From: a virus
Lineage: Duplodnaviria; Heunggongvirae; Uroviricota; Caudoviricetes
Length of the DNA stretch: 43,613 nt
Strand: one strand, 5' to 3'
IMG/VR virus record: IMGVR_UViG_2654587728_000013
Coordinates: 1-43,613 of that record
Of the stretch, positions 5,033 through 33,857 are shown in pieces (position 1 is the stretch's first letter; each line of letters opens with the position of its first letter). The notes beneath the pieces are model-generated. The model saw only the letters and a program-made list of their open reading frames with translations, did not search any database and was not told where the DNA came from. The translations under genes were made by a program, and so were the position numbers.

Positions 5033-5188
5033 ATTACCATTTTGGTAATACCTGGAGATGCAGGAAAACCACGAAGTGGTGGTTTCTGCCTGAGCGATGC
5101 GCTCATGTATTACCTTTTGGGTAATAATCAGATCAAAAAGTGATTGTGTCAATAGGTATGACGAGAAAAAAATTACCGTTTTGGTAAT
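5033..5188. promoter_or_regulatory. OL-like operator triplet: ATTACC-N5-GGTAAT at 5033..5049, 5109..5125, 5172..5188
   Basis: Three perfect 17-bp palindromes spaced 76 and 63 bp; minus-strand TTGACA (5147-5152) 17 bp from GATTAT overlapping site 2. Confidence 0.6.
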
Positions 5189-5245
5189 TGCGTGAGGCGC
5201 GAGCTTACCGCCATCGGGCAGGTAAAGCGTCAGAATGGCGGGGGA

Positions 5246-5842
5246 TTACTTGCTTTTGTTCTGCTCAAACACGAAGTTAATGAATGAGGTGATCTTGTTT
5301 TTCTCTTCCTGAGGCAGAGCTGCATACAACCTGTGGTCGTAGTCGATAACACCAGGAGCGCCGACGGGAATAATCATCTCGTATGCTTCATGCCCGAACG
5401 CGCGCGCCAGGGAGGAAAGAACGCCGATAGTTGTGCTGACTTCCGCTTTCATAATCCGGTTAACTGTGGCCGGGCCAATACCAGCTGCTACAGCAACTTT
5501 CTTTTCTGATGTCATTTCCGTGTTCTTTCTCATCCAGGCATTGAGCGTGGCTGCAGCCTGCTTCTCTACAGTCCATTCGCCATCATCAGTGGCCGGAATA
5601 AAGATATCAGCCTGTACCGCGTCCAGTTCGTGATCGACATCAAGCCAGAACTTTTCTTTGCGCGCTGCTTCCTCAATGATACGCGCTGCATTTGGTCCGA
5701 TGTTTTTGATGCCAGTGCACCACCTGTTGACCAGGTTCTGCGAACGCTTCACACGTTCGGCAAAGCGCAACTGGGTATCATCGAAATCCCGGCGAATGAT
5801 TTCGTTAAGGTTTTTGCGTCTTATGTCATAAATACTTTTCAT
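5246..5842 (-). CDS. prophage repressor, tandem XRE-type HTH, no LexA-like peptidase domain
   Basis: 198 aa; two HTH-like segments (QLRFAERVKRSQNLVNRW... and EKKVAVAAGIGPATVNRIMKAE...); flanked by operator triplets; divergent from Cro-like gene. Confidence 0.6.
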   Translation of the reverse strand: MKSIYDIRRKNLNEIIRRDFDDTQLRFAERVKRSQNLVNRWCTGIKNIGPNAARIIEEAARKEKFWLDVDHELDAVQADIFIPATDDGEWTVEKQAAATLNAWMRKNTEMTSEKKVAVAAGIGPATVNRIMKAEVSTTIGVLSSLARAFGHEAYEMIIPVGAPGVIDYDHRLYAALPQEEKNKITSFINFVFEQNKSK

Positions 5843-5895
5843 AGCTATTGTATTTGTCCATTTAATGTTACCTAACTGACTAAATTTAAATGAAT

Positions 5896-5959
5896 ATTAC
5901 CATAAAGGTAAAGTTACCATAACGGTAATAATCATTGATTTTTTCACCAGAAAGGTAAT
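5896..5959. promoter_or_regulatory. OR-like operator triplet: 5896..5912, 5913..5929 (TTACC-N5-GGTAA) and 5943..5959 (TCACC variant)
   Basis: Divergent intergenic region between repressor and Cro-like gene; plus-strand TTGATT (5935-5940) then TAATAA/ATAATT about 17 bp downstream overlapping third site. Confidence 0.6.
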
Positions 5960-5997
5960 AATTCAGATATGAATAGACAGGCTGAGATAAGCAAAAT

Positions 5998-6231
5998 ATG
6001 AGTGACGAAAAAAAATTTGATTTCAAAAAGCACTGGCTGGGACTGTCTCCTGATGAGCGTGAAGCATTTGCAGATGAAGCCGGAACCACCAGTCATTACA
6101 TCCAGACTCACCTGACCGGGCGCCGCAAGATGCCGGGTAAGCGACTGATGGACGGGCTGTTTAAAGCATGTCGCTCCCGCGAATGGACAAAGTCTAAACC
6201 TGAATTAGTGCTCTTCTTCTACGACCGATAA
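5998..6231 (+). CDS. Cro-like HTH regulator
   Basis: 77 aa; first rightward gene divergent from repressor; HTH-like segment AGTTSHYIQTHLTGRRKMPGKRLMDGL. Confidence 0.5.
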   Translation: MSDEKKFDFKKHWLGLSPDEREAFADEAGTTSHYIQTHLTGRRKMPGKRLMDGLFKACRSREWTKSKPELVLFFYDR

Positions 6232-6379
6232 CCCTCCCTGAACCCATCAATGCCGTCATTACCTGGCGGCTCCTTCCTGCATAAAACACCTTTTCGGTAA
6301 TAAAAAACCATATACGGTTGATCTTTTTTTCTTCCTGCATCAAAATCATCGTAATAGTAAACGTTAATGAGGTTGTGCA

Positions 6380-6580
6380 ATGGAGATTATTACTCGCCTT
6401 GACGCTGCAAAGGCAGGTCTTAAGCGTTATTACACCGGAAAACAGTGTAAGCATGGTCATGACAGTGAGCGCTACGTTTACAACGGGCACTGCGTTACAT
6501 GCGCCATCAACACGAGCCTGCGCCGCCAGGCAGAAATAAAGCAGCTCATGGCCGAAGCCAGCCTGCAACACTCAAGCTGA
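6380..6580 (+). CDS. small zinc-binding protein, possible CII-position regulator
   Basis: 66 aa; Cys/His cluster CKHGHDSERYVYNGHCVTC; position between cro-like and replication genes. Confidence 0.35.
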   Translation: MEIITRLDAAKAGLKRYYTGKQCKHGHDSERYVYNGHCVTCAINTSLRRQAEIKQLMAEASLQHSS

Positions 6581-6595
6581 CGACAGGTATTTACC

Positions 6596-7414
6596 ATGAG
6601 CAGATACGCAACAGAGTGGGCATGGAAAACAAATCCGGGCAGCTCATCACTGAAACTCATCCTGCTCTCGATGGCTGATCGAGCCGATGAATACAACCTG
6701 TGCTATCCAAGCATCGAACGCCTGGTTACCGACACAAGCCTGAATAAAAAAACAGTTCAGGCTGGTCTTATTTCGCTCATCGGAATGGGGCTAATTTCAG
6801 ATACAGGAGAAAGAAAAGGGGCAACAAGAAGGGTCCGGGTTTTCTCTTTAAACATACCCAAAAACGGTAATGTTACCAATATTGGGAATATACCCAAAAA
6901 CGGGAAGTTGAATGATCCCAAAAACGGGAAGTTGAATGATCCCAAAAACGGGAAGTTGAATGATCCCAAAAACGGGAAGTTGAATGATCCCAAAAACGGG
7001 ATGCAGAACCTATCAGTTAACCAGTCATATAACCAAGAGAAGGAGAGGGGCGATAAAACTGGGGGTTTAGTGCCTCAGAGGACTGACGCTAACAACGCCG
7101 TGATTAACAACTTTGTCCCTCCTGGTGGACTGGGGCAATTCGGGAAATTTGTCATGCATGAGCACTGGTCACCATCGGATGATTTCCTCCGGGTGTCTTC
7201 ATTGCAGGGCATTAACCTGGATTGCCAGCCAACGCCACAGGAGCTTGCAGAGTTCAGGGTTTACTGGATGGCCGAGGGTAAGGCTTTCCACCATGCGCAA
7301 TGGGAGCAAAAACTTGCCAGACGTCTGCAGATCAGCAGACAGAACAAACTTACCTCACCTGAAAACAACGTACCGCACTGGAACAGTCCAGAGGCGTGGG
7401 AGGATTTCCTGTGA
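6596..7414 (+). CDS. replication initiation protein (lambda O-like) containing the origin iterons
   Basis: 272 aa; N-terminal HTH-like domain; internal PKNGKLND x4 repeats encoded by DNA iterons; followed by P-like gene. Confidence 0.75.
   Translation: MSRYATEWAWKTNPGSSSLKLILLSMADRADEYNLCYPSIERLVTDTSLNKKTVQAGLISLIGMGLISDTGERKGATRRVRVFSLNIPKNGNVTNIGNIPKNGKLNDPKNGKLNDPKNGKLNDPKNGKLNDPKNGMQNLSVNQSYNQEKERGDKTGGLVPQRTDANNAVINNFVPPGGLGQFGKFVMHEHWSPSDDFLRVSSLQGINLDCQPTPQELAEFRVYWMAEGKAFHHAQWEQKLARRLQISRQNKLTSPENNVPHWNSPEAWEDFL
6857..7000 (+). repeat. origin-like iteron array: 4 perfect 24-bp direct repeats (6893..6988) plus flanking partial copies
   Basis: CCCAAAAACGGGAAGTTGAATGAT x4, with CCCAAAAACGG partials at 6857 and 6989; lies inside the O-like gene as in lambda ori. 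Confidence 0.75.
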
Positions 7415-8196
7415 ATAACGTATTTACCGCCATCCAGAACCGAGACGGTGAGGCTATGGCCAGCTTAACCGGTTCAGACCGTCAATATGCAGGCAGCGAC
7501 AACGTTGTGAACATCACGGCAGAGCGCCTTGTAGATGCCCTGTTTAAACAGCTTAAGCAGCTATTCCCGGCAGCTGAGCAGACCAACCTGAAGACTCCGG
7601 CGCAGGAGACAGCAGCAAAGCAACAGTGGATCGCTGCATTCGCCGAAGGTGGCATCCGTACCCGTGAGCAGGTATCGGCAGGGATGCGACATGCCCGTGC
7701 CAGTGAATCACCGTTCTGGCCTTCACCTGGGCAATTCATCAAGTGGTGCAAAGACAGCAAGATGGTTCTGGGGATCAGCATTGATGACGTGATGGGGGAG
7801 TTTCACCGTTACGCCAAAGAGAAAAGCCTCCAGCCTGGTGGGCCCGAGAGATTCCCGTGGCGTCACCCGGTCATGTACTGGATTGTGTGTGATACCCGGA
7901 GGGCGATGTATCAGCGCCAGCTGAGTGAGGCTGAAGTTGAGAAGCATGCTCGCAAGCTGCTGGATGAATGGTCGGCAAAAGTGGCATCCGGTCACCAGAT
8001 TCCAGATCCGATACTCAGCATACAAGCCAAGCCAGAGCCAATGAGCACACCACAGACAGGCTCAGGTAACGCCTACCATCCACCAGGGCGAAGTTTCGGA
8101 TGCATGCCGAACGCAGCCACCCTGGGAGGGATAACGCCTGCACAGTGGCTCATGGAGGAATGCAGGCGAGGGAAGGCAGCAGGACTCATCAAGTAA
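7411..8196 (+). CDS. replication protein P-like helicase loader
   Basis: Recalled lambda P similarity (QQWIAAFAEGGIRTREQVSAGMRHAR...PSPGQFIKWCKD); GTG start at 7411 overlaps O-like stop (GTGA); ORF track start 7396. Confidence 0.75.
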   Translation: MNNVFTAIQNRDGEAMASLTGSDRQYAGSDNVVNITAERLVDALFKQLKQLFPAAEQTNLKTPAQETAAKQQWIAAFAEGGIRTREQVSAGMRHARASESPFWPSPGQFIKWCKDSKMVLGISIDDVMGEFHRYAKEKSLQPGGPERFPWRHPVMYWIVCDTRRAMYQRQLSEAEVEKHARKLLDEWSAKVASGHQIPDPILSIQAKPEPMSTPQTGSGNAYHPPGRSFGCMPNAATLGGITPAQWLMEECRRGKAAGLIK

Positions 8197-8232
8197 TACC
8201 AGCGCAGTAGCGCATTTTTTTACATCCAATGA

Positions 8233-8249
8233 ATTACCAAAAGGGTAAT
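8233..8249. promoter_or_regulatory. operator copy ATTACC-AAAAG-GGTAAT
   Basis: Perfect TTACC-N5-GGTAA in intergenic region upstream of resolvase gene. Confidence 0.5.
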
Positions 8250-8294
8250 AAAATATGCGCATTGCTATTGAAATTAACCCATTTGTGGTTTTAA

Positions 8295-8311
8295 ATTACC
8301 TGAGAGGTAAA
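8295..8311. promoter_or_regulatory. operator copy ATTACC-TGAGA-GGTAAA overlapping RBS of resolvase gene
   Basis: Perfect TTACC-N5-GGTAA ending 3 bp before ATG at 8314. Confidence 0.5.
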
Positions 8312-8313
8312 TC

Positions 8314-8778
8314 ATGGCGGCAGTATTAGGGATTGACCCAGGATGCAGCGGATCTCTGGTCCTGATAACTGAGCAGGGCGGATACATCGACCACCTGGCA
8401 ATGCCGACCATCAAGGTTGGGACAAAGTCCAGAGTCAACGGCGCAGCGGTGGCTGCATGGCTGCGTAAGTACGGAATTACGCACGCATACCTCGAGCAGG
8501 TGGGCGCAATGCCAGGGCAGGGAACGGCGAGCATGTTCACGTTCGGTCATGCCGCTGGGGTAGCGGAGGGGATCCTGCAGGGTCTCAACATTCCGTACAC
8601 GCTGGTAACGCCGCAGGCCTGGAAGAAGTCAGCCGGTCTCATCGGAAGTGACAAGGACGCGGCACGCAGCAGAGCAATTCAGCTCTACCCGGAACTCAGG
8701 GCGCTGGATGCAAAAGCGAAAGGTCAGGCCATAGCTGATGCGCTGTTAATCGCCAGGCACGGGATCGGTATCAAATAA
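8314..8778 (+). CDS. RuvC-like Holliday junction resolvase
   Basis: 154 aa; N-terminal LGIDPGCSGSLVL resembles RuvC-family catalytic motif. Confidence 0.65.
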   Translation: MAAVLGIDPGCSGSLVLITEQGGYIDHLAMPTIKVGTKSRVNGAAVAAWLRKYGITHAYLEQVGAMPGQGTASMFTFGHAAGVAEGILQGLNIPYTLVTPQAWKKSAGLIGSDKDAARSRAIQLYPELRALDAKAKGQAIADALLIARHGIGIK

Positions 8779-9152: not shown

Positions 9153-9153
9153 G

Positions 9154-10314: not shown

Positions 10315-10653
10315 ATGGCTAAATCCGCAGCAGAGCGCAAAGCAGCGCAGCGTGCCCGCCAGGCTGAATCTGGTAACCGCAAGCTGGAATTGCAACTAGA
10401 CGAGCAGGAACTGGAGATGCTGGCGAGAAACTGCGCCGCCCGTCGCCCTGGTCGGGCGCCGTATGACATGAACGAGTACATCGCGTTGCTTATACGCCAG
10501 GATGATGCGCGGGTTCGTGGGCGCATCAAGTCAATCAGCTCTAACCGTTGCGGGAAATGTGGCGATGCGCTGCCAGTTGAGTCGTGTCCGTGTGATGGTG
10601 ATTCGGCATGCTGGGTGACGCGTGGCTGGCATGATACTAAACTAGCGGTGTGA
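10315..10653 (+). CDS. hypothetical Cys-rich protein
   Basis: ORF 10267..10653 trimmed to MAKSAAERKAAQ; C-terminal CGKCGD...CPCDGDSAC cluster; last gene before terminase. Confidence 0.45.
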   Translation: MAKSAAERKAAQRARQAESGNRKLELQLDEQELEMLARNCAARRPGRAPYDMNEYIALLIRQDDARVRGRIKSISSNRCGKCGDALPVESCPCDGDSACWVTRGWHDTKLAV

Positions 10654-10661
10654 CATGTCAC
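10650..10661. repeat. 12-bp palindrome GTGACATGTCAC (copy 1 of 3) overlapping stop codon
   Basis: Exact palindrome; same sequence at 13166..13177 and 31721..31732, each next to a GC hairpin. Confidence 0.6.
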
Positions 10662-10681
10662 GATAGAGACAATAAATTGCA

Positions 10682-10712
10682 AAGGCCGCCGACTATGGCG
10701 GCTTTGTTTTGC
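10682..10712 (+). terminator. rho-independent terminator
   Basis: AAAGGCCGCC-GACTAT-GGCGGC followed by TTTGTTTTG. Confidence 0.6.
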
Positions 10713-10720
10713 GTGTTACT

Positions 10721-10737
10721 ATTACCAAAACGGTAAT
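10721..10737. promoter_or_regulatory. operator copy ATTACC-AAAAC-GGTAAT upstream of terminase genes
   Basis: Perfect TTACC-N5-GGTAA between terminator and small terminase start. Confidence 0.5.
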
Positions 10738-10756
10738 TATTACTTCGGTGGTAACA

Positions 10757-11350
10757 ATGCCCGCAGAACCAAAAGCACCAAAACGCAAATCAACGCAGTA
10801 TAAGCCAATTACAGCGATGCAGGAGGCTTACGCGCAGGAATATACCAAATGCCCTGAGAATCAGACTCAGGCAGCGATTAACGCAGGATTTTCGCCAAAT
10901 ACGGCGGCAGTCAAGGCCAGTGTCATGATGCGTGATGAGCGTATCCAGAAACGGATCGCCGAACTGATGGAAGAGCGTAACAAGCGTTTGCGCGTCAGTG
11001 CGGACTACGTACTGCTCCGCCTGGTGGAAATTGACCAGATGGACGTGATCGATATCCTGAACGATGACGGCACACTGAAGCCTATCCGCGAGTGGCCAAA
11101 GATATGGCGTACTACACTGAGCGGTTTCGATTTGTCATCGACCATCATGAATATGAACGAGGATTCGATAGAAACAATCCTCAAAAAAATCAAATGGCCT
11201 GACAAGGTGAAGAACCTCGAGCTTATCGGTAAGCACGTCGACGTCAATGCGTTCAAAGAGCGCATGGAGGTTTCCGGCACAGTAACGATTGCCGACCGCA
11301 TGGCGAAGGCCCGCCGTCGCGTGAAAGAGCTGGATGGTGGTGAAGAATGA
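10757..11350 (+). CDS. terS: terminase small subunit
   Basis: ORF 10709..11350 trimmed to MPAEPKAPKRK; P27-like small terminase signature (AYAQEY...AAINAGFSP); immediately upstream of large subunit. Confidence 0.7.
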   Translation: MPAEPKAPKRKSTQYKPITAMQEAYAQEYTKCPENQTQAAINAGFSPNTAAVKASVMMRDERIQKRIAELMEERNKRLRVSADYVLLRLVEIDQMDVIDILNDDGTLKPIREWPKIWRTTLSGFDLSSTIMNMNEDSIETILKKIKWPDKVKNLELIGKHVDVNAFKERMEVSGTVTIADRMAKARRRVKELDGGEE

Positions 11351-13165: not shown

Positions 13166-13177
13166 GTGACATGTCAC
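13166..13177. repeat. 12-bp palindrome GTGACATGTCAC (copy 2 of 3)
   Basis: Exact copy; lies between stop of 13182..13613 and its terminator hairpin. Confidence 0.6.
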
Positions 13178-13647: not shown

Positions 13648-14250
13648 CGAACTGGAAGTAAGGGTGCCTTCCATGGCAGTTACGGGTTTACAGCGCAACG
13701 TCATCGCAATGGCGTTCTGCTGTAAAAAAAGTGTCGGTACCAGCGAGGGGCAACTCGGGATGAATCTGGCACCGACAAAGTCACACAGCAATTACATTGG
13801 CACTACGGTTTACCACGGTCCTAACGTGATTCGTTTGTGGTGGCTGGTGCTGAACTCCAGCTCAGTGGCGCGGTGTTTCAATATCGTAACCGCCCGTTCC
13901 ATCCGCGTTCGATCAGTCCGTATGCTCGCTTAGAACGTTTCGCCTGCTTATCTTTTCTCAACCGTTTGACGGTCAGCCCCGCCATTAACCACAACATTGA
14001 GAGCACTGCGCCTGTATCGGTTAGCGTCATGGGATTAACCGGTCACCCCAATGCTCTCATCGTTGCATCCTCGTCTCTTCCGAGGTGTCACACCGTATCG
14101 CCACGATGGTGAATCGTCTGTCCGTGCTTACCTGACACTGGCTTGCACATTCCGGCTACCCGGCTGGGGAAGTAGCATCAATGGAACCCATCCGGACCGC
14201 TGCGGCACATGTGCCATATGCCGTACATCAACTGCGTTACATCAACATCA

Positions 14251-14267
14251 ATTACCTAAAAGGTAAT
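14251..14267. promoter_or_regulatory. operator copy ATTACC-TAAAA-GGTAAT upstream of portal operon
   Basis: Perfect TTACC-N5-GGTAA about 90 bp upstream of small ORF 14357. Confidence 0.5.
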
Positions 14268-14356
14268 ATCTGATGTTATAAGTGTCAATAGCCTACGCTA
14301 AATAAATCATATGTGGTTAAATTGGTAATAATTTAATTGCGTACGGAGCTATTGCT

Positions 14357-19746: not shown

Positions 19747-20070
19747 ATGGATCTGGTAAACCTCAAAACCGGCACCGACACCTATCAGGATGAGGAGGGT
19801 AAAACCCAGACTCGTGATGATTATCCGTGGGGCCTTTGCATTGAATTGAACAACGAGACGTTAGCCAAGCTAAAGGCAGCACCTCAATCTGCTGGCACTG
19901 AAGTAATGATCACTGCAAAGGCAACTATTCGCTCAACTTCTACCCGCGAAACGGAAGATGGAATGCAGCATAACGCCAGTCTGCAGATCACTGATATGGC
20001 GCTCAGTCCAGTATCCGGTGAGCAACCGAAGTCAGCAGCGCAAACTCTCTACGGTGGGGAGGATGATTAA
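19747..20070 (+). CDS. hypothetical virion protein
   Basis: ORF track start 19732 is TTG; ATG at 19747 with CAGGAG RBS preferred. Confidence 0.45.
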   Translation: MDLVNLKTGTDTYQDEEGKTQTRDDYPWGLCIELNNETLAKLKAAPQSAGTEVMITAKATIRSTSTRETEDGMQHNASLQITDMALSPVSGEQPKSAAQTLYGGEDD

Positions 20071-24170: not shown

Positions 24171-26792
24171 ATGCCAACAGTACCAACAGTCACCGGTCGA
24201 CAGGTAGAAAGCAGAGGGTTTCAGTCTCCTGGGTTTCAGGCATTCGATCAGCCAAATATCGGTGATGCTATCGTCGACGCTGGCAGCAAAGCCATCAACG
24301 TATTTGGAGAGGCCAAGCAACGGGCAAATGTGGCACTTACCCAAGAGGCAACTCTTCAACTGAATGCGGTTGGCAACGATCTGCTAAATAACCCTGATTC
24401 AGGATTCATGAATCTGCAAGGGAAGAACGCGATCGGCAAGGGGCAGGAGTACGTGCAGCAGTTTGATTCTCAGGCGCAGAGCATTGCAGCAAGCCTGCCG
24501 GATGAGCAGGCGCGAAATGCGTTTCTTCAGCAGGCACAGCAGCAGAGAATCCAGTTCAAGACGACCGCTGTTCGCCATGAAGTTGGGCAGGTGCGTCAGT
24601 ACGAAGCAGGTATGCAGGAGGGAACGTTACGTTCGCTGGCACAGCAGGCGATTTCTCCTGGTCTGTTTGTTCCTGCATTGATGAATGCTCGTAATTCTAT
24701 TATCGCTTATGGGAAAGCCCACGGACAGAGCGATGAGGAAATAGAGTCTAATTTCGTGCAGTGGCGTGAGCAGGCCGCCAACCGCGCCAGCGAAGCATGG
24801 TATACACCAACCTATCAGCAAATCATGGGGCCGGAAGGTAAGATCGAAGTTACCGACACTCCGAGCGAATCGCAGCTTTTTTCCGCGATGATCTGGCAGG
24901 AATCCGGAGGTAATCAGTATGGCAAAGACGGTTTACCACTGGTATCTCCGAAAGGTGCAGTAGGGGTGGCGCAGGTGATGGAGGATACGGGGCCGGAAGC
25001 AGCACGACTGGCTGGCGTACCGTGGGATCGTGATAAGTGGCTGAACGATACGCGCTACAATGCGAAGCTTGGTCAAGCCTACTTCGGCGCGCAGATGAAG
25101 AAGTATGACAATAATCCTGTACTGGCGGTGGCGGCGTATAACGCTGGGCCAGGTGCGGTTGATGGATGGATAAAGCAGTTTGGCGACCCGCGTACTGGTG
25201 CGGTGAGCAATGAGCAATTCGCTGCGGCAATCCCTTATGATGAAACTCGCAACTATGTCGCGAAAGTAACCGGCAGCGCTCCGGCGATACCAGGAACTGC
25301 TACGATGGAAAACCTCATCAATCAGCCTTTCTGGGATGCGATGAGTCCGCAGAACAAATCAGCGATGATGAGCAAAGTGGCAGGCATGTACGATATGCAA
25401 GCCGCAGCTGGTCGCGTGTCATTGCAAAGCCGCATGCAGGATGACCTTGCTAAATTAGAGTCAGGACAGAAAGTTAACCCGATCTCGGAACGTGAGTGGC
25501 TGGCGGTCATGCCGTTGCAGGCAAGCCCGGCGGAGCGCATTCAGATGCGCGAGTCATTCCAGCAATATCAGCAGGCGATGACGCTGCAACCGGTATATCA
25601 ATCCATTGTTCAGGGTTCTGCGCAGCAGGGTATCGCTGCGGTGCAGTCTATGGTGCCGCAGGAAGATGACCCTGACTTTAAATTTAAGCAGAGCTTGTAC
25701 GCAACTGCGCAGGCCAAACTGAATCAGGTAATTAAAGCGCGCGAGTCCGACCCGGGTACGTGGCTACAAGCCAACTCGCCGGTGGTGAAAAACGCCTTTG
25801 AGCAATATCAGAACAACCAGGCATCAGGTGAATATCTGGTTTCCCGTCTGCAAGCAGAGAAAGACCGCCTTGGTATCAATAGTAAGAAGGTACTTCCTGA
25901 CGCCATGGTTAACAACCTCATTTCTCAGATCGATAACAATAAAGAATCAAGCGTAACCGCCATTCAGTCGGTGGCGCAGTCGTTCGGAAAATACTCCGAT
26001 CAGGTTATGCAGCAGGTGCAGAAAAGCGCATATCCAGCGCTTCAAGTCATCATGGCGACCAATAATCCTCGGGCCGCCAACGCGCTCTGGCAAAACCGCA
26101 GTGTTAAAACTTCTGACCTGCGCGGCAGCTTTGAGAAGACAGACGCCGACAGCGCTGATTCATCTTGGAATGACCAGGCAAAAGATTTTGCCGGGACGAT
26201 GGTTGTACAGCCTGGCGGGTCTGCCGTGTGGAACAACTTCAACGAGCAGGGTAAACGCCTGACCTACACCTATATGCAGCGCGGCATGTCGCCTGGCGAT
26301 GCAGCAAAACAGGCATATCAGGACGTTCTCGGTGAGCAGTATCAGACCAATGGCACCTGGCGTATGCCTAACAACGCCGGGCATGATATTCGTGACGTTA
26401 ATGACGGCGCTAACGTGTACCTGAAGAATCTGTCAGCAGATCAGATCATGCCGCTAATCGGTGACGCCCGTCTGCCGGATGAGGTTAACCGAGAGCAAAG
26501 TATTTCCCGCATTCGTGATAACGCACAGTGGGTAACCAACAGCGACGAAACAGGGCTTACGCTGATGATGAATGGTCTGTTGATCAACAATGCGCAGGGG
26601 CAGCCGATTACAGTTTCGTTTGCTGACCTCGCGAAACTTGGCGCTGGCAACCGTACAACTTGGAACAGCCTGACCAAATTCGTGCAGACGCCGGTTAAGT
26701 ACACTCCGGGCCAGTCGAAGAATTACACGGTAGAAAGTCAGCGTGAAAATCTGATCAACATTATCCAGAACGGCCAGCAGACGGGACGATAA
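24171..26792 (+). CDS. internal virion protein with lytic transglycosylase (SLT) domain
   Basis: 873 aa; WQESGGNQYGKDG...GVAQVMEDTGPE...AAYNAGPGAVDGW matches SLT signature. Confidence 0.75.
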   Translation: MPTVPTVTGRQVESRGFQSPGFQAFDQPNIGDAIVDAGSKAINVFGEAKQRANVALTQEATLQLNAVGNDLLNNPDSGFMNLQGKNAIGKGQEYVQQFDSQAQSIAASLPDEQARNAFLQQAQQQRIQFKTTAVRHEVGQVRQYEAGMQEGTLRSLAQQAISPGLFVPALMNARNSIIAYGKAHGQSDEEIESNFVQWREQAANRASEAWYTPTYQQIMGPEGKIEVTDTPSESQLFSAMIWQESGGNQYGKDGLPLVSPKGAVGVAQVMEDTGPEAARLAGVPWDRDKWLNDTRYNAKLGQAYFGAQMKKYDNNPVLAVAAYNAGPGAVDGWIKQFGDPRTGAVSNEQFAAAIPYDETRNYVAKVTGSAPAIPGTATMENLINQPFWDAMSPQNKSAMMSKVAGMYDMQAAAGRVSLQSRMQDDLAKLESGQKVNPISEREWLAVMPLQASPAERIQMRESFQQYQQAMTLQPVYQSIVQGSAQQGIAAVQSMVPQEDDPDFKFKQSLYATAQAKLNQVIKARESDPGTWLQANSPVVKNAFEQYQNNQASGEYLVSRLQAEKDRLGINSKKVLPDAMVNNLISQIDNNKESSVTAIQSVAQSFGKYSDQVMQQVQKSAYPALQVIMATNNPRAANALWQNRSVKTSDLRGSFEKTDADSADSSWNDQAKDFAGTMVVQPGGSAVWNNFNEQGKRLTYTYMQRGMSPGDAAKQAYQDVLGEQYQTNGTWRMPNNAGHDIRDVNDGANVYLKNLSADQIMPLIGDARLPDEVNREQSISRIRDNAQWVTNSDETGLTLMMNGLLINNAQGQPITVSFADLAKLGAGNRTTWNSLTKFVQTPVKYTPGQSKNYTVESQRENLINIIQNGQQTGR

Positions 26793-28500: not shown

Positions 28501-31046
28501 TGGCTAACGAATTTCTTACGCAATGCGAAATGACCGTCAATGCAGCTGCCGGGCGCAAGCTGTCTGATGACGAAATGGAATCTTTGGTGCGTGACATGAA
28601 CGACACCACAAACCGGATACTGGCTGGTAATGAAGCACTGACGCTGGAAGAAGCAGCGATGCGCGCCGCGCAGGAGCTTGGTAATCGCGAGCAACTGGCT
28701 AAAGTCATTGAGGCACGGAATAAGGCCATTAATACCCGTATTGCAGCTCAGCGCCTTGGCGAGCTTCGCCGGACTTGGAAAGACCGTCCGGACATCGGTC
28801 TGGAGGCTATTCTTGTCGGACGTAATGACGCGCGCACTGGTTCCCGCCGCTCGGTATCCTCTGAGGTTGCCCAACTGCGCGGTAAGTATCATGCTGGTAT
28901 CAACTATGATTTCGACCAGGCAGGACTGGTTAAATTTATTGCCAGTGGCAGCAATGACCGCGAGATAGCCGACGCCATGTGGCGCATTGGCCGCGGACAG
29001 AAAACGGACGGTATGACGCCGCAATCAGTCAGTGCCGCTAAGATCATCATGAAGTGGCAGGAAACTGCGCGCGTGGATGAAAACCGTGCTGGTGCCTGGA
29101 TTGGTAAGATGCCTGGCTACATCGTCCGGCAGTCGCATGACATACTGAAAATCCGTGCCGCCGGGTATGAATCCTGGCGCAATACCATTCTGCCGCGGCT
29201 GGATGATGCCACCTTTGACGGGATCACAGACCGAGAAGGGTTCCTGCGTGGTGTCTACGACGGCCTTGCCTCCGGTGTGCACCTTACCTCTGAAAAACCA
29301 GACTGGATGAATGGCTTTAAGGGATCGGCGAATGCGGCCAAACGAGCCAGCCAGGAGCGGGTGTTGCACTTCAAAGACGGTGTTAACTGGCACGAATACA
29401 ACGAGCAATTCGGAACTGGCAGCCTGCGTGAGGCAGTATTCGGCGGACTGAACAGCGCGGCGCGCACTACGGGCATGATGCGCGTGCTTGGTACCAACCC
29501 GCAGAACATGTTCAAGTACCTGACAGACACCATCGCAAAAGACGTGAGCAAGCAGAGCAACCCTTCGGCGCTGGCTGATTTCATGACCAAGGTGCGCCGC
29601 CTGAATCGCACGGTTATGCCACAGGTTGATGGATCGCTGAATATCCCCGGCAGTGTTGGCTGGGCTAATGCCTCAGCCAACGTGCGCGGCTGGCTGCGTA
29701 TGAGTCAGCTTGGAGGAGCGGTCATTTCATCTTTTAACGACGTGCCAATCTCGGCGACAGAAATGCGGTATCAGGGCCAGAACTTCATGCAGGCGCTGAC
29801 CGGCGCGATGAAGGGGCGCTTTTCCCGCTACACCAGTGATGAGCAGAAGGAGATCCTTTCATCTATCGGCGTTTACTCCGACGCGATGACGCAGGAAATC
29901 ATCCGTCGCATGTCTGGCGACGACAGCATGAGCGGCAAGATGGGGCGTGCGCAGCAGCTATTCTTCAAATACAACCTTATGAACTTCTGGACAGAATCCG
30001 GGCGTAACAGCAACGCCATGATGATAACAAACTGGCTGGCGAAGAACGCCGATCAGCAATTTTCTGCACTGCCGGAGGACCTGCGCCGCGTTCTGGACCT
30101 GCACGGCATAGGTGACGCTGAATGGAATATCTACCGCAGCATGGACATGGCAGACAGCGAAGGCCGCAAATTCATGACGACCAGCGGAATTCGTGGCGTT
30201 CCGGATGAGGTGATAGCCTCATATGTTGAAGGAAAAGGCATGAAGGTCACCGAGCGATCTATTGCCGATGCGAGAGACACGCTGGAAAGCCAACTTCGTG
30301 GGTATATTCTTGACCGACTAAACATCGCTATGTCAGAGCCGGGAGATCGTACGCAGGCGTTTATGAAGATGGGCACTGTACCAGGAACAGTAGCTGGGGA
30401 GGCAATACGTTTCGCTGGTCAGTACAAATCGTTCACTGCGAGTTTCATGCAGAACGTGCTTGGACGTGAGGTATTCGGGCGCGGTTATACTCCCGCTGGC
30501 CTGGGTGAATCAAAAACAGGATCGCTGACGAATGCGCTGCTGCGTAACGGAAAAGGTGCATTCTTGGGGGCGGCAAACCTGTTCGTCTGGGCAACCATGT
30601 TTGGCTATATCTCTATGCAGTCGAAACTATTGCTTAAGGGGCAGACGCCGCGTCCGGCAGATGCCAAGACATTCCTCGCAGCCGCATCTCAGGGCGGCGG
30701 CCTAGGCATCTTGGGCGACTTCATGTTTGGCGAAGTCAATCGCATGGGTGCTGGTCCAGTGACATCATTGATGGGGCCAGCCGCGTCGAACGCTGATAGC
30801 ATTATCACGCTGTTCCAGCAGACAACGCGCGGCGATGCAGACCTGGGTGACTGGTATCGCACCGCGCTGGACAATACGCCTTTCCTTAACGTGTTCTGGC
30901 TGCGCACAGCAATGAATGGTTTAATATTGAACCGTATACAGGATGCTCTTGACCCTGGATCACTGGAGCGCTATCAGCGCCGTGTTGAACGGGAGCAGGG
31001 TAACGACTTTCTGATCCCACCATCGCAGTTCATGCTAGGGAAGTAA
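28500..31046 (+). CDS. large internal virion / ejection protein (putative)
   Basis: 848 aa; last large gene of the core block. Confidence 0.5.
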   Translation: MANEFLTQCEMTVNAAAGRKLSDDEMESLVRDMNDTTNRILAGNEALTLEEAAMRAAQELGNREQLAKVIEARNKAINTRIAAQRLGELRRTWKDRPDIGLEAILVGRNDARTGSRRSVSSEVAQLRGKYHAGINYDFDQAGLVKFIASGSNDREIADAMWRIGRGQKTDGMTPQSVSAAKIIMKWQETARVDENRAGAWIGKMPGYIVRQSHDILKIRAAGYESWRNTILPRLDDATFDGITDREGFLRGVYDGLASGVHLTSEKPDWMNGFKGSANAAKRASQERVLHFKDGVNWHEYNEQFGTGSLREAVFGGLNSAARTTGMMRVLGTNPQNMFKYLTDTIAKDVSKQSNPSALADFMTKVRRLNRTVMPQVDGSLNIPGSVGWANASANVRGWLRMSQLGGAVISSFNDVPISATEMRYQGQNFMQALTGAMKGRFSRYTSDEQKEILSSIGVYSDAMTQEIIRRMSGDDSMSGKMGRAQQLFFKYNLMNFWTESGRNSNAMMITNWLAKNADQQFSALPEDLRRVLDLHGIGDAEWNIYRSMDMADSEGRKFMTTSGIRGVPDEVIASYVEGKGMKVTERSIADARDTLESQLRGYILDRLNIAMSEPGDRTQAFMKMGTVPGTVAGEAIRFAGQYKSFTASFMQNVLGREVFGRGYTPAGLGESKTGSLTNALLRNGKGAFLGAANLFVWATMFGYISMQSKLLLKGQTPRPADAKTFLAAASQGGGLGILGDFMFGEVNRMGAGPVTSLMGPAASNADSIITLFQQTTRGDADLGDWYRTALDNTPFLNVFWLRTAMNGLILNRIQDALDPGSLERYQRRVEREQGNDFLIPPSQFMLGK

Positions 31047-31047
31047 T

Positions 31048-31419
31048 ATGAACAGAATTATATTAATGACTCTTCTTATTTTTTTTGTTGGAAAAGCTTC
31101 TGCTGATACTACATCACCTTTAATGATTCAGCCTAAAAATGGAGAAACATTGGAGGATTCTAAAAAGCATACAATGGAATACTTTGGATGCATAAAAGGG
31201 CAGGCTGTAAAGTATGCCAAGACAGGAGAAAGTGTTGATTCCATATCAAAAGCTTCGGTTGTGTCATGCGAGTCATATATACCAATGATCGCCGAGTCGA
31301 ATATATATTATTTAAACTCTTCGCAAGATGGTAAGCGGCAATTTACAGAAAGGCTAAAATCTGATGGTGAGAGATTAGCCACAAAATTTGCCATGGATGA
31401 GAAGATTAAAAATAAATAG
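31048..31419 (+). CDS. small secreted protein (AT-rich moron)
   Basis: 123 aa; signal peptide MNRIILMTLLIFFVGKASA; visibly low GC (estimated ~35%, not computed). Confidence 0.55.
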   Translation: MNRIILMTLLIFFVGKASADTTSPLMIQPKNGETLEDSKKHTMEYFGCIKGQAVKYAKTGESVDSISKASVVSCESYIPMIAESNIYYLNSSQDGKRQFTERLKSDGERLATKFAMDEKIKNK

Positions 31420-31427
31420 GTGACCAC

Positions 31428-31724
31428 ATGCAAGCTATTGGTTTCATTGTTTACATAGTTGTTGGTCTTTTTCAGTTGGCTGCGATCATGGCTGGTCTTG
31501 AATCGTGGTGGGGACTGCACTGGATAGTGGCTGCACCCATTGCTTTCATCGTTAGTTATATCCCGTTGGTCGGTTCCATTGTTGGAATGGTTGGCGCTGT
31601 CGACGTATGGCGTTGGGAATGGTGGCAGGCAGGGCTTCTTTTCTTTGGCGGCCTGGTTTTTGCTATTGCGTGCGGGGGGATGTCTTCGTTCTTCGAATGG
31701 CTATCCTTCAGGAAAAGAGCGTGA
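31428..31724 (+). CDS. small three-TM membrane protein
   Basis: 98 aa; three hydrophobic helices; RBS AGGTGA; stop overlaps GTGACATGTCAC palindrome. Confidence 0.55.
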   Translation: MQAIGFIVYIVVGLFQLAAIMAGLESWWGLHWIVAAPIAFIVSYIPLVGSIVGMVGAVDVWRWEWWQAGLLFFGGLVFAIACGGMSSFFEWLSFRKRA

Positions 31725-31732
31725 CATGTCAC
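31721..31732. repeat. 12-bp palindrome GTGACATGTCAC (copy 3 of 3)
   Basis: Exact copy overlapping stop of 31428..31724; GC hairpin 25 bp downstream. Confidence 0.6.
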
Positions 31733-31748
31733 AAAGGCCACTGCACCC

Positions 31749-31771
31749 ACAAAAAAGCCCGCGTCGCGGGC
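31749..31771 (-). terminator. rho-independent terminator (minus strand; possibly bidirectional)
   Basis: GCCCGCG-T-CGCGGGC hairpin with A-run on plus / T-run on minus, directly after stop of 31772..32236. Confidence 0.55.
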
Positions 31772-32236
31772 TTACTCTTCTTCATCGCTACCAAAGAGCG
31801 GGTTATCGTTGTAGTCAGAGAGAAGAAACGGTATGTGCTCCCTCGAATACCCAACCACAACTATTTCATCTCCGTCTTTCGCATAGTGAATGCATTCATT
31901 TGAATGCTTCCCACCAGGGTTGAATTTTAAGTCAACAGTATGATTTCTGAAGGTGTTAGGATACCACGTGGGACCACAATGATAGTGCCAGTAATTTTCC
32001 TGCTCATAATTGTCTGAACCGGGAATTTTATCATAGTTGTCGTCAACCCAAGATGGCTTGTTTTTACCTACAAGCGTTCTGCCATTGGCAACATCTTCCA
32101 TAAAATTTTGGATGGTTTCCAACTCCAGGTCCGTGAGATGTGGTCCATCTACTGCGAAAGGTTCGTTACTGGCACCGGTTATAAAGCCAAATGCAACCCT
32201 AGGCTTAAACTTCAAGTTACACCCCTGACAGGTCAA
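31772..32236 (-). CDS. hypothetical protein with acidic C-terminal tail
   Basis: 154 aa; only start-like codon at 5' end is TTG immediately after in-frame TAA of upstream small ORF; start uncertain. Confidence 0.4.
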   Translation of the reverse strand: MTCQGCNLKFKPRVAFGFITGASNEPFAVDGPHLTDLELETIQNFMEDVANGRTLVGKNKPSWVDDNYDKIPGSDNYEQENYWHYHCGPTWYPNTFRNHTVDLKFNPGGKHSNECIHYAKDGDEIVVVGYSREHIPFLLSDYNDNPLFGSDEEE

Positions 32237-32404
32237 TTATTTTGCGCGAAATGCCGCCTTGAAGTCGTTGAAAGAAGTCCCTGACTGATAAGTCATGTCC
32301 TGGTCGCGATCTTTGTTAGCGCGACCAAGCATTACTTTACCAATGGCATCCCAGCATTGCTTGGCTTGCTCATTTTGTTGAGTCCGATTTTTCAACGCTG
32401 TCAT
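32237..32404 (-). CDS. small ORF (55 aa) in same frame as downstream 154-aa ORF
   Basis: Found by manual translation (below ORF-track size cut-off); strong RBS AGGAGA; ends at TAA followed in frame by TTG of next ORF. Confidence 0.35.
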   Translation of the reverse strand: MTALKNRTQQNEQAKQCWDAIGKVMLGRANKDRDQDMTYQSGTSFNDFKAAFRAK

Positions 32405-32418
32405 AGTGCGTCTCCTTC

Positions 32419-32435
32419 TTTACCTTTGAGGTAAT
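32419..32435. promoter_or_regulatory. operator copy TTTACC-TTTGA-GGTAAT over RBS of small ORF
   Basis: Perfect TTACC-N5-GGTAA. Confidence 0.5.
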
Positions 32436-32499
32436 ATTACGCGAATCTACGTCACACCGCCAATGATTATTTTATAGGCGCATCCCTGCGCCATCGTCA

Positions 32500-33198
32500 T
32501 CAGAACTTACCAGTCATGCTGTTGATGTACTGCGCATGAGTCTGGATATCGCGCAGGCATTTACTGGCGCCGACAATGTAGCTCATCATGGCCGCGAACT
32601 CTGCTACAGCACCTTCAACATCATGCCCGTCTGCGTCCAGTTGGCGTAGCAGGCTCATCATCAAAGAGTGCTCTGTCAGACCAAGAACACCTTCAGGTGA
32701 ATGGATGTGTTCACGGTAGTTTGGCTTGAGTGGGGCGCTGTATTCCTGTTTCTCTTCCGTCTTCATCGCTTCCAGAATGGCGGGCATGAAGCTGGCTACA
32801 ACCTTTTGCGCTTTGTCTGCCGGTGATAATTCTTCACGAACGTATCGACCAGTGCGGCGGATTTGCGGAAGAACGTCGCCAGTTACCCATTTGCGGAAAC
32901 GATAGGGGATAGTACCAGGAGTTACCGCATCGCGGCAGCGCAGGATCAGAGTGTAGAGGCCGGATTCAGAGATGATGAGGGTATTAGGGTTCCCTCGTTT
33001 TCCGTCGGTTAAAGCGACGGTATTCTTTTCGTCGTCATCCAATTTAAGCAGAGCATCACGGTTGTTTGATATACCAAGAGCATTACATACATCTAACGCA
33101 ATAAACCATGGCTCGCCGTCGATGATGATTGCACGAATATCGGCTTGCGATTCGAAAGAAAAAACTGAAGTATTTTTTTGAGTTGTCATAGTGATCAC
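32500..33198 (-). CDS. Bro-N domain antirepressor
   Basis: 232 aa; N-terminal FSFESQADIRAIIIDGEPWFIALDVCNALGI matches Bro-N; distinct C-terminal domain. Confidence 0.7.
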   Translation of the reverse strand: MITMTTQKNTSVFSFESQADIRAIIIDGEPWFIALDVCNALGISNNRDALLKLDDDEKNTVALTDGKRGNPNTLIISESGLYTLILRCRDAVTPGTIPYRFRKWVTGDVLPQIRRTGRYVREELSPADKAQKVVASFMPAILEAMKTEEKQEYSAPLKPNYREHIHSPEGVLGLTEHSLMMSLLRQLDADGHDVEGAVAEFAAMMSYIVGASKCLRDIQTHAQYINSMTGKF

Positions 33199-33457
33199 CT
33201 TTTAGTCTGGTTAATCACCACCGGAGGTTCCAATCTCGGAGGTGGTGAACTGTGCAGGGTTGGAACTACCGGCTAAAAGGACCCGGCGCACCTTTCGGTG
33301 CCCCCACACAGCCCACCATAATGCGAATGTGGCCGTGCTTAACGCATAAAAAAACCGCTTGCGCGGTGAATGCGCCTTTTAGTATCCGGGGTTCCAATCC
33401 CGGCACTGGATTTTGCCAGTGCCTGATCACTATGGCACAAGTATTTTGCGTTGTAAA

Positions 33458-33474
33458 TTTACCGTAAAGGTAAT
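33458..33474. promoter_or_regulatory. operator copy TTTACC-GTAAA-GGTAAT in antirepressor promoter region
   Basis: Perfect TTACC-N5-GGTAA. Confidence 0.5.
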
Positions 33475-33504
33475 AATAAACGCATTATGTAGGTTATTTC
33501 AACC

Positions 33505-33765
33505 TTATGTGGTTTGCTTGCGTAACTGTTCCGCACAGTAATCGAGATGCGTTTGCAGATCCTGCATGGTCATTTGAGAGCTTGTTACGTAATTCACAAG
33601 GGCAACCAATTCAGCCAGCGGCCCGTCAACGTTGAAGCCGTCTTTATCGAGTTCCCGCAGCAACTTCATCAGATGCGAGTCCTCCACCAGGGATCTAACG
33701 CCTACCGGCGTGTGTATTCTTTCCTCAAATCCTTCTTCCAGCGGATGGTGATACTGCCGTTGCAT
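33505..33765 (-). CDS. stand-alone paralog of the antirepressor C-terminal domain
   Basis: Aligns by eye to C-terminus of 32500..33198 (HLMKLLRELDKDGFNVDGPLAEL vs SLMMSLLRQLDADGHDVEGAVAEF); start at MQRQYHH with GGAG RBS. Confidence 0.5.
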   Translation of the reverse strand: MQRQYHHPLEEGFEERIHTPVGVRSLVEDSHLMKLLRELDKDGFNVDGPLAELVALVNYVTSSQMTMQDLQTHLDYCAEQLRKQTT

Positions 33766-33840
33766 CTCTTCTTCTCCATGCAATCACTGTATAAACATAC
33801 AGTAGCAGAAGATTTACTGACTATCCAGCACGAAATGTAA

Positions 33841-33857
33841 ATTACCTGTAAGGTAAT
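33841..33857. promoter_or_regulatory. operator copy ATTACC-TGTAA-GGTAAT between antirepressor paralog and tailspike
   Basis: Perfect TTACC-N5-GGTAA in divergent intergenic region. Confidence 0.5.

Follow-up and report, generated by a model that had tools for sequence, protein, structure and literature searches.

Among the closest described relatives of the regulatory system considered here is the Rep–Ant switch of phage SPC32H (PDB 5D50 and 5D4Z), reportedly the subject of Kim & Ryu (2013, J Virol) and Kim et al. (2016, PNAS). SPC32H Rep is reported to bind palindromic DNA sites as a tetramer, which the antirepressor Ant disassembles; the dimer binds weakly. The protein has been described with a tetramerisation domain associated with DNA looping, and is reported to share its tetramerisation fold and overall architecture with Rco of the Bacillus plasmid pLS20, a TetDloop tetramer that loops DNA between operators 75 bp apart. 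In the words of a 2023 paper on the subject, the mechanism of repression by Rep "has not been extensively characterized". Scattered sites are on record for phage ε15, whose RefSeq entry (NC_004775.2) tags seven equivalent sites, with the same sequences as those described below, as "protein_bind: repressor": one upstream of each of terS, the portal operon, the tail fiber gene and the resolvase gene, and three beside the repressor gene. Kropinski et al. (2007, Virology 369:234) is the paper reportedly named beside the annotation of these ε15 gp38 binding sites.

The stretch of DNA analysed here (the window, 43,613 nucleotides) is a complete ε15-like phage genome, and the phage belongs to the genus Uetakevirus; it is not lambdoid. 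It carries immunity features of the Uetakevirus type, namely an orthologous Rep, the same layout of palindromes, and an ant gene that is divergent from the tailspike gene and has a LexA box. Rep matches PDB 5D50 (SPC32H Rep) over its full length (E=4e-128, about 5 substitutions, about 97% identity) and ε15 gp38 with 98.5% identity, while Ant is 100% identical to its SPC32H counterpart. The HTH_3, HTH_31 and HTH_26 domains of Pfam map to residues 104-150 of Rep, and no S24 (LexA-like autocleavage) domain was detected by Pfam. The SPC32H switch also has a LexA box upstream of ant and the same operator motif, which occurs at ten perfect positions in that genome. We find no essential difference between the two systems, apart from accessory cassettes that the window adds. 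The same 17-bp palindrome is found at the same positions in ε15, relative to which the window adds two operator-bearing accessory cassettes (32419 and 33458). The ε15 tags cover only the seven perfect ATTACC...GGTAAT copies; neither the triplet on the OR side nor the second resolvase site is listed there, and the weaker sites are left out too. A Rep-like site upstream of the lysis genes, present in ε15 and phiV10, is missing from the window. As the ε15 reference genome already annotates scattered repressor sites, operator dispersal is a known feature of the ε15-like group and not a discovery.

The 12 perfect TTACC-N5-GGTAA palindromes of the original prediction are recovered site for site. With 12 exact matches, TTACCNNNNNGGTAA is far more frequent in the window than by chance: 100 dinucleotide-preserving shuffles average 0.00. 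The degenerate copies that had been noted are present as well: 19 matches to ATTACC-N5-GGTAAT with up to two mismatches, where 1.07 are expected. When all palindromes composed of a 5-mer, a spacer and the reverse complement were enumerated, TTACC-N5-GGTAA came out well ahead of all others in each of the window, ε15 and SPC32H. A symmetrised position weight matrix (PWM) shows two equally conserved half-sites, and the sites are symmetric 17-bp palindromes. Fourteen sites score at least 15.9 and everything else scores 10 or less, at the level of shuffled sequence, leaving a sharp gap between. The set comprises the 12 perfect copies, 5943 (TTCACC...) and 6285 (AACACC...).

With homology-corrected gene boundaries, all 14 sites fall in non-coding sequence, which makes up 8.25% of the genome (binomial P=6.8e-16); on a greedy, deliberately over-called ORF map the count is 8/14 (P=2.2e-6). 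When only the intergenic sequence (41% GC) is shuffled, perfect motifs arise at 0.0045 per shuffle, compared to 12 observed. Six sites flank the repressor gene as OL-like and OR-like triplets, one of them the TCACC variant at 5943, just as proposed. The remaining eight lie outside the triplets, and all but 6285 are clearly beyond the immunity region; for those seven, gene annotation agrees with the neighbours that were proposed (resolvase, terS, portal operon, antirepressor genes, a minus-strand ORF pair and tailspike).

Table 1 Operators, predicted promoters and regulatory genes in the window.
Feature	Position	Strand	Remarks
OL-side operator ATTACCATTTTGGTAAT	5033..5049		PL leader; 13 bp before first leftward gene start (5020)
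OL-side operator	5109..5125		Fused to PL -10, covers +1
Predicted PL, TTGACA-17-GATTAT (10/12)	5124..5152	-	Promoter scan
OL-side operator	5172..5188		19 bp upstream of PL -35
Rep, immunity repressor, 198 aa	5246..5842	-	Homology to PDB 5D50 (SPC32H Rep) and ε15 gp38
OR-side operator ATTACCATAAAGGTAAA	5896..5912		Closest to rep start; motif counts, PWM
OR-side operator GTTACCATAACGGTAAT	5913..5929		Abuts 5896; 5 bp upstream of PR -35
Predicted PR, TTGATT-16-AATAAT	5935..5962	+	Promoter scan
OR-side operator TTCACCAGAAAGGTAAT	5943..5959		Half-site with one mismatch; inside PR spacer and -10
gp39 homologue, first rightward gene, Cro-position small regulator	5998..6231	+	ε15 gp39, 100% identity
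14th site AACACCTTTTCGGTAAT	6285..6301		Between gp39 and gp40-like gene (6380); PWM 15.9
Upstream operator, resolvase promoter	8233..8249		Just 3' of small terminator; ε15 35906 annotated repressor site
Predicted P-resolvase, TTGAAA-17-TTAAAT	8268..8296	+	-35 TTGA and TGTGG..AAAT block conserved in alignment
Downstream operator, resolvase promoter	8295..8311		-10 fused; ends 3 bp before RuvC ATG
Terminator closing early-right operon	10682..10705	+	Directly 5' of terS operators
Extended -10 (TGtTACTAT), predicted terS promoter	10714..10722	+	Final two bases shared with operator start
terS operator ATTACCAAAACGGTAAT	10721..10737		ε15 12-27 annotated repressor site
Degenerate second terS operator ATTACTTCGGTGGTAAC	10739..10755		Covers terS ribosome-binding site; ends 1 bp before ATG
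Operator	14251..14267		98 bp upstream of gp3-like gene and portal operon (14357/14578); ε15 2931-2947 annotated
Operator	32419..32435		Fused to predicted minus-strand promoter TTGGCG-18-TAATAT, 32463-32434
Operator	33458..33474		Fused to predicted minus-strand promoter TTGAAA-18-TATTAT, 33502-33473
ant, small SPC32H-type antirepressor	33508..33765	-	95% identical to ε15 gp19
LexA box CTGTATAAACATACAG upstream of ant	33787..33802		Read from sequence
Operator, divergent ant/tailspike intergenic region	33841..33857		Tailspike gene 33963; ε15 19895-19911 annotated

In the immunity region, the triplets overlap strong PL and PR predictions. The 5109 and 5172 operators are separated by 63 bp centre-to-centre and the other OL-side interval is 76 bp. 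Counted along the predicted PL transcript, 5033 covers roughly +68 to +84. On the OR side, 5896 and 5913 have a centre spacing of 17 bp. The product of the first rightward gene matches PHROG 35, transcriptional repressor (E=3e-11), and the 6285 site that follows it has counterparts in ε15 (33728) and phiV10 (33111).

Several transcription units start just 3' of a terminator. At five predicted promoters (PL, P-resolvase, P-terS, P32419 and P33458) the -10 hexamer begins exactly 4 nt 5' of the operator and ends in the operator's first "AT", and each promoter faces the adjacent gene. On these promoter predictions, the five sites are classical promoter-occluding operators. In a sigma70 consensus scan of the operator regions, promoter-like sites were no commoner than in shuffled sequence, so the promoter calls rest on the fixed geometry and on conservation. 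No convincing core promoter was found overlapping 14251, 33841, 6285 or 5033. Operator pairs 62-63 bp apart bracket the predicted PL and P-resolvase; the resolvase pair, upstream of a RuvC-like gene that starts at 8314, keeps its 62 bp distance in all six phages with no indels. The TGnTAnTAT of the terS promoter is invariant in four phages, and the true start of terS is at 10757. The 10739 site, 18 bp from 10721, has a PWM score of only 9.9, yet its position is conserved in ε15, phiV10, TL-2011b and BUCT554.

The core of the LexA box upstream of ant, CTGTATA...ACAG, is kept in all six phages. The predicted promoter at 32419 faces a pair of minus-strand ORFs of 55 aa (32237-32404) and 154 aa (31772-32236), and its operator is kept in an E. 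coli prophage and TL-2011b. The one at 33458 would drive a 54-aa HTH ORF (33266-33430) and a Bro-N antirepressor-like gene (32500-33198); here the operator is kept in phiV10, TL-2011b and an E. coli prophage. These accessory-cassette operators are conserved where the overall identity is about 77%, and one promoter-operator module is found upstream of unrelated cargo. The idea that they serve moron promoters is unproven: the cassette promoters are operator-covered, and the cassettes are hence predicted to be off in lysogens.

The core motif is located at syntenic positions in SPC32H, phiV10, TL-2011b and BUCT554. Alignments of orthologous intergenic regions show invariant half-sites with drifting spacers and flanks, and the half-site is common to all genus members examined. 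The core motif is the same although the phiV10-type Rep is only 42% identical; in its N-terminal HTH this Rep retains the stretch NLVNRW. In phage ZX5, overexpression of a phiV10-type repressor lowered the transcripts of holin and endolysin by over 99.9%. This is consistent with repression reaching the late genes, an effect that could be indirect.

The best explanation, which we put at a probability of about 0.8, is that ATTACC-N5-GGTAAT with its AT-rich spacer serves as the Rep operator at the heads of the transcription units, and that Ant would release them all. Judged from the sequence, the palindrome is almost certainly the binding site of the main repressor, and it is placed at the promoters of almost all transcription units. 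Because operator-like palindromes are present at the heads of most units, direct control by a single repressor very probably extends to early, packaging, head, tail and antirepressor genes. The separate units would be early-left, early-right, resolvase/'nin-like', terS-terL, portal/head-tail, tailspike, ant and the two accessory minus-strand cassettes. With Rep operators at each head, one repressor species could silence every unit of the lysogen directly, with no antitermination or activator relay. The analysis demonstrates the enrichment, positions and conservation of the motif, the promoter geometry and the identities of Rep and Ant; occupancy of every dispersed site by Rep, the reality of the predicted promoters and cooperative binding or looping at paired sites are inferred from these. 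As the operator is fused to the -10 at five promoters, Rep on the DNA would block both the -10 and the start of transcription; the operator at PR is located in the spacer and the -10. PL and P-resolvase each have another operator upstream of the -35, at a distance of 62-63 bp or about six helical turns. Such an arrangement would suit a tetrameric repressor whose two DNA-binding units clamp or loop the promoter. Upon induction, the LexA-controlled Ant, reported to dismantle the Rep tetramer, would free all operators together.

The original prediction that one repressor silences the phage genome-wide thus stands in part. Control of late and antirepressor genes is supported by site positions, promoter overlap and conservation in six phages, whereas its dimer, stoperator and moron components are not. 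The near-identical SPC32H Rep, reported as a tetramer on DNA with weak binding by the dimer, speaks against "one repressor dimer". At slightly under even odds, the arrangement may represent a 'flat' Uetakevirus circuit, in which a portable -10/operator part (NNNNAT/TACC...) and 62-63 bp clamp or loop pairs would let Ant fire all units. The fused part would be reused at early, packaging and accessory promoters and would move with swappable cargo cassettes. As far as could be checked, there is no earlier description of this fused-module and fixed-spacing architecture.

The likeness to mycobacteriophage stoperators that had been suggested fails on their defining features. In cluster A mycobacteriophages (L5 gp71, TipsytheTRex repressor), stoperators are asymmetric, orientation-dependent 13-mers in more than 20 copies; the repressor is a monomer with two DNA-binding domains that blocks elongation, and has no known antirepressor. 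The shared traits are many immunity-repressor sites across the genome in short intergenic regions, and one repressor that reaches past the immunity region. In contrast, the 14 sites of the window are symmetric 17-mers, the repressor is of a type reported as a tetramer and antirepressor-driven, and most of the interpretable sites overlap a predicted -10/+1, at least five being fused to the -10. The contrast with lambda, where operators are confined to the immunity region, is beside the point because the phage is a Uetakevirus and not lambdoid. Similar to lambda CI with OL and OR, the window has divergent PL and PR, three operators on each side of the repressor and a first rightward gene in the Cro position. 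Unlike lambda, Rep has no S24 autocleavage domain and induction is by antirepressor; the OL-side sites are not adjacent but separated by 63 and 76 bp, and additional operators lie beyond two adjacent PL/PR triplets. Lambda CI-type immunity is rejected on these grounds. The window recalls the Rco system in its operator pairs, which are 62-63 and 76 bp apart and bracket promoters; looping by Rep is putative, and Rep sites are single palindromes, unlike the direct-repeat arrays of Rco. Phage P1 C1, with many dispersed, asymmetric operators and an antirepressor, and the repressor of Streptomyces phage phiC31, with dispersed 17-bp conserved inverted repeats, resemble the window phage in that a single immunity repressor serves many operons through genome-scattered operators. 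To our knowledge, both are unrelated to Rep, with no homology or common sequence motif.

It is possible, though unlikely, that some sites are roadblocks, stoperator-like in effect, at which Rep stops read-through RNA polymerase without occluding a promoter. The candidates are 5033, 10739, 14251, 6285 and 33841. The first lies within the predicted PL transcript, 10721/10739 and 8233/8295 are directly 3' of terminators, where read-through would arrive, and no strong sigma70 promoter overlaps 14251, 6285 or 33841. However, symmetric sites such as these cannot show the dependence on orientation by which stoperators are defined, and the fused -10 explains five sites as ordinary operators. Auxiliary sites cooperative with 5109 account equally well for 5033 and 5172, and with upstream promoters also repressed in the lysogen there would be little read-through to block.

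Less probable still is that the dispersed palindromes are mainly bound by another protein, with Rep only at OL/OR. Small regulators are encoded (gp39, a gp49-like protein and the 54-aa HTH protein), and lambdoid Cro and CI use common operators, which makes shared occupancy plausible; the half-site is also constant although Rep diverges to 42% identity. Nevertheless, the PWM does not distinguish dispersed from OL/OR sites, members of the genus share a conserved recognition-helix region in Rep, the ε15 curators assigned the sites to the repressor, and the best sites of a host factor would not be expected around the phage repressor gene. A non-regulatory motif (a restriction-modification or methyltransferase target, a recombination or module boundary, or an AT-rich intergenic by-product) is already disfavoured and very improbable: TTACC-N5-GGTAA superficially resembles bipartite type I recognition sites, DNA methyltransferases are encoded in the phage group (ε15 record) and the sites lie at mosaic module junctions, but this reading has to face 12 motifs against 0.0045 per intergenic shuffle, the fixed register with -10 elements and gene starts, and triplets around the repressor gene for which it offers no rationale.

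Since the existence and dispersal of the sites are on record for ε15, what is still of value is confirmation by experiment, together with the geometry of promoters and operators. If Rep acts on all sites, a temperate phage would keep its entire genome silent through a single repressor and relieve this in one antirepressor step, a circuit logic simpler than the lambda cascade. Such a circuit would be relevant to predicting the induction of very common E. coli and Salmonella prophages; of 5,426 complete E. coli genomes that were searched, about 830-900 match the queried regions. It would in addition supply synthetic control with an operator/promoter part that is compact and well defined.

The 43.6-kb window contains 12 copies of the palindrome TTACC-N5-GGTAA, against none across 100 dinucleotide-preserving shuffles, and each of the 12 copies of the original prediction was recovered at its position. 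With up to two mismatches allowed, ATTACC-N5-GGTAAT gives 19 matches against 1.07 expected. As a guard against circularity, we enumerated all palindromes consisting of a 5-mer, a spacer of 0–12 nt and the reverse complement; TTACC-N5-GGTAA ranks first by a large margin in the window, ε15 and SPC32H. A symmetrised position weight matrix (PWM) trained on the perfect copies yields 14 sites scoring 15.9–27.7, while the remainder score at most 10.0, the level seen in shuffled sequence. The operator spacer is AT-rich, and its centre (position 9) is A or T in every copy.

With gene boundaries corrected through homology to curated relatives, 14/14 sites fall in non-coding DNA, which makes up 8.25% of the genome (P=6.8e-16). 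A greedy longest-ORF map placed six sites within ORFs, which comparison with curated relatives identified as over-calls or over-extended starts. Taken as a conservative bound, this over-called map leaves 8/14 sites non-coding (P=2.2e-6). Shuffling of intergenic sequence only (41% GC) produces 0.0045 motifs per shuffle. The original observation is borne out, as are the two operator triplets flanking the repressor gene and the identities of the neighbouring genes.

Coordinates of operators, promoters and related features. Operators are named by the start of the 17-bp copy in the window; a slash marks the operator start within the −10 hexamer.
Genome	Feature	Position	Sequence or layout	Context
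Window	rep	5246–5842(−)		immunity repressor
Window	ant	33508–33765(−)		antirepressor
Window	LexA box	33787–33802	CTGTATAAACATACAG	directly upstream of ant
Window	attP core	39800–39816	ATTGAGTGGGAATGATT	
Window	PWM site beyond perfect copies	5943	TTCACC…	"TCACC variant" of the original prediction
Window	PWM site beyond perfect copies	6285	AACACC…	
Window	Over-called or over-extended ORFs	4859–5143(+), 6194–6571(−), 10709 start, 14051–14266(+), 33252–33467(+)		judged against curated relatives
Window	PL	operator 5109	TTGACA-17-GATT/AT	
Window	P-resolvase	operator 8295	TTGAAA-17-TTAA/AT	
Window	P-terS	operator 10721	extended −10 TGtTACT/AT	
Window	P32419	operator 32419	TTGGCG-18-TAAT/AT	
Window	P33458	operator 33458	TTGAAA-18-TATT/AT	
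Window	Second palindrome	10650–10661	GTGACATGTCAC	directly after gp49-like gene, ahead of terminator and terS operators
Window	Second palindrome	13166–13177	GTGACATGTCAC	adjoins start of minus-strand ORF downstream of terL
Window	Second palindrome	31721–31732	GTGACATGTCAC	late-operon end
ε15	Second palindrome	2142, 19517, 39612	GTGACATGTCAC	same relative positions
SPC32H	Second palindrome	2145, 19634, 38629	GTGACATGTCAC	same relative positions
BUCT554	Second palindrome	5660, 8259, 27924; also 21342	GTGACATGTCAC	first three at matching positions
Window	Third motif	6306–6319, 14305–14318, 33501–33514, 33883–33896, 37819–37832 (and 8277–8290)	AACC-N6-GGTT / CATAT-NN-GGTT	predicted promoters of gp40-like gene, portal operon, Bro-N cassette, tailspike gene, lysis cassette
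ε15	Annotated repressor site	12–27		before terS
ε15	Annotated repressor site	2931–2947		before gp3 and portal gene
ε15	Annotated repressor site	19895–19911		before tail fiber
ε15	Annotated repressor sites	32479, 32554, 32616		beside repressor gene
ε15	Annotated repressor site	35906–35922		before resolvase
ε15	Unannotated OR-side triplet	33340–33403		
ε15	Unannotated operator	35968–35984		second resolvase operator
ε15	Unannotated site	24703–24719		upstream of lysis genes
ε15	Unannotated site	33728–33744		after gp39

The window is a complete ε15-like podovirus genome of the genus Uetakevirus. The nearest phages are Salmonella PAT1, 65FD, 66FD, ε15 and SPC32H, with the φV10 type farther off, and a search of 5,426 complete E. 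coli genomes matched related prophage segments in about 830–900 of them. The attP core, reported as common to ZX5, φV10 and ε15 with integration at the guaA 3′ end, is intact, so the window represents free phage DNA as opposed to an integrated prophage. Its integrase is just 52% identical to that of ε15.

The 198-aa repressor matches SPC32H Rep (PDB 5D50) with E=4e-128 and about five substitutions, and is 98.5% identical to ε15 gp38. It carries HTH_3-type signatures, and no S24 autocleavage domain was found with Pfam. The ant product is 100% identical to SPC32H Ant. The perfect LexA box upstream of it is kept in 6/6 phages compared, in agreement with the LexA control reported for SPC32H Ant. 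Between the LexA box and Rep operator 33841 lies an invariant block, CTATCCAGCA. On every feature tested (repressor, operator motif, its synteny, Ant and LexA box) the window belongs to the ε15/SPC32H Rep–Ant immunity system. In secondary sources, SPC32H Rep is described as a tetramer on palindromic DNA, with DNA-binding domain pairs contributed by different dimers and a tetramerisation fold linked to DNA looping, that is taken apart by tetrameric Ant; according to one of them, the repression mechanism "has not been extensively characterized".

Corresponding positions carry the core motif in SPC32H (10 perfect copies), φV10, TL-2011b and Enterobacter phage BUCT554 (8 perfect copies). When the intergenic regions of P-resolvase, portal, ant–tailspike and terS are aligned with their orthologues, spacers and neighbouring bases vary around unchanging half-sites, TTACC and GGTAA, the pattern that would be expected of sites under selection. 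Both accessory-cassette operators also persist in φV10, in TL-2011b and in an E. coli prophage whose identity over this stretch is only about 77%. The φV10-type repressor is only 42% identical to the window Rep overall, but its N-terminal HTH retains the NLVNRW stretch. Since φV10, TL-2011b and BUCT554 retain the TTACC/GGTAA core despite this divergence, a test of repressor/operator covariation is uninformative inside the genus. The annotated terS start of φV10 (NC_007804.2, position 41) puts the extended −10 and both Rep operators (86–120) within the CDS; an alignment that includes the window, TL-2011b and BUCT554 points to the ATG directly after the second operator, at about 122, as the true start.

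Five sites share one layout, in which a −10-like hexamer starts exactly 4 nt ahead of the operator and its final two bases are the operator "AT". The predicted promoter points at the adjacent gene in 5/5 cases, and the extended −10 of P-terS (TG-n-TA-n-TAT) is unchanged in four phages. At PR (TTGATT-16-AATAAT), operator 5943 falls within the spacer and −10. Because a consensus promoter scan gave no more sites in total than in shuffles, the promoter calls rest on the fixed-register geometry and its conservation. At the five fused sites, bound Rep would sit over the −10 and the start of transcription, amounting to ordinary promoter occlusion. None of the operators 5033, 6285, 14251 and 33841 overlaps a convincing core promoter; these may be auxiliary or cooperative sites, control unrecognised promoters, or act as roadblocks.

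At PL and P-resolvase a second operator is located upstream of the −35, at centre-to-centre distances of 63 and 62 bp, respectively. The P-resolvase spacing of 62 bp is free of indels in 6/6 phages, and each of them has its matching OL-side pair at 62 or 63 bp. The remaining spacings are 17–18 bp (5896/5913 and 10721/10739), 30 bp (5913/5943) and 76 bp (5033/5109). Such promoter-bracketing pairs, about six helical turns apart, would suit a tetramer with two DNA-binding units. A search for 62-bp partners of single sites found a conserved GGTAAT 62 bp downstream of 14251, a candidate partner, and for 33841 a candidate at 50 bp instead. The operators of the resolvase and of terS each follow immediately on a terminator, and one is also annotated after gp18 in ε15; the genome thus resembles a series of units, each gated on its own.

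Behind operator 32419 lie two ORFs (31772–32404(−)) of 55 aa (PHROG 8607) and 154 aa (PHROG 5954), neither of which has a match in Pfam or NCBIfam. With their promoter fused to this operator, the two are predicted to act in the lytic phase instead of being morons expressed in the lysogen. The promoter-operator module (32434–32500) is common to TL-2011b (33263–33420), together with an upstream hairpin-like GGCACAGGGATGTGCC; in that phage a small ORF and a YafO-family toxin come after the module. The comparison suggests that the cargo has been exchanged behind a conserved regulatory module. We also considered whether the window cargo is related to the YafO cassette and rejected this (E=0.4).

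Two other motifs recur in the window. A second perfect palindrome, GTGACATGTCAC, has three copies, with counterparts at the same relative positions in ε15, SPC32H and BUCT554; a further regulator may bind it, or it may form part of bidirectional terminators. A third motif overlaps predicted core promoters. Its form CATATNNGGTT has five exact matches at four loci, all intergenic. It is kept in other phages at the portal, tailspike and Bro-N sites and is weakly enriched in ε15. At the lysis promoter, the place taken by a third-motif palindrome in the window is occupied by a Rep-like site in ε15 and φV10. The third motif may belong to a second regulator or be a variant Rep site. No tRNA was found in the window near the portal-operon site, where SPC32H has one.

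The dispersal of Rep operators is an already known feature. The feature table of the ε15 RefSeq record (NC_004775.2) holds seven "protein_bind … repressor … lysogeny" features whose 17-mers are the same as those in the window, so the dispersal was already recognised when ε15 was annotated. That record covers perfect 6+6 palindromes only, seven in all. A literature search on the operator motif string found nothing relevant.

The original prediction held that one repressor dimer silences dispersed promoters in the manner of mycobacteriophage stoperators. A single repressor acting at many promoters is very likely; the dimer and the stoperator analogy do not stand. P1 C1 and φC31 c govern multi-operator regulons under one immunity repressor, and the likeness to these and to the cluster A mycobacteriophage repressors lies in one immunity repressor reaching the whole genome. 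Cluster A stoperators are asymmetric, orientation-dependent 13-mers that are bound by a monomer and block elongation; no antirepressor is known from the phages that carry them. In contrast, the window sites are symmetric and most of the interpretable ones are promoter-fused, the near-identical SPC32H Rep is reportedly a tetramer, and induction is driven by an antirepressor. The system also differs from lambda: Rep has no S24 domain, wide gaps separate the OL-side sites, and further operators lie beyond the immunity region. Possibly new are the fusion of −10 and operator as a module recurring at five promoters, the link of this module to swappable cargo (in TL-2011b unrelated genes follow it) and the fixed 62–63-bp operator pairing. 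These possibly new parts are modest additions to the ε15/SPC32H immunity system.
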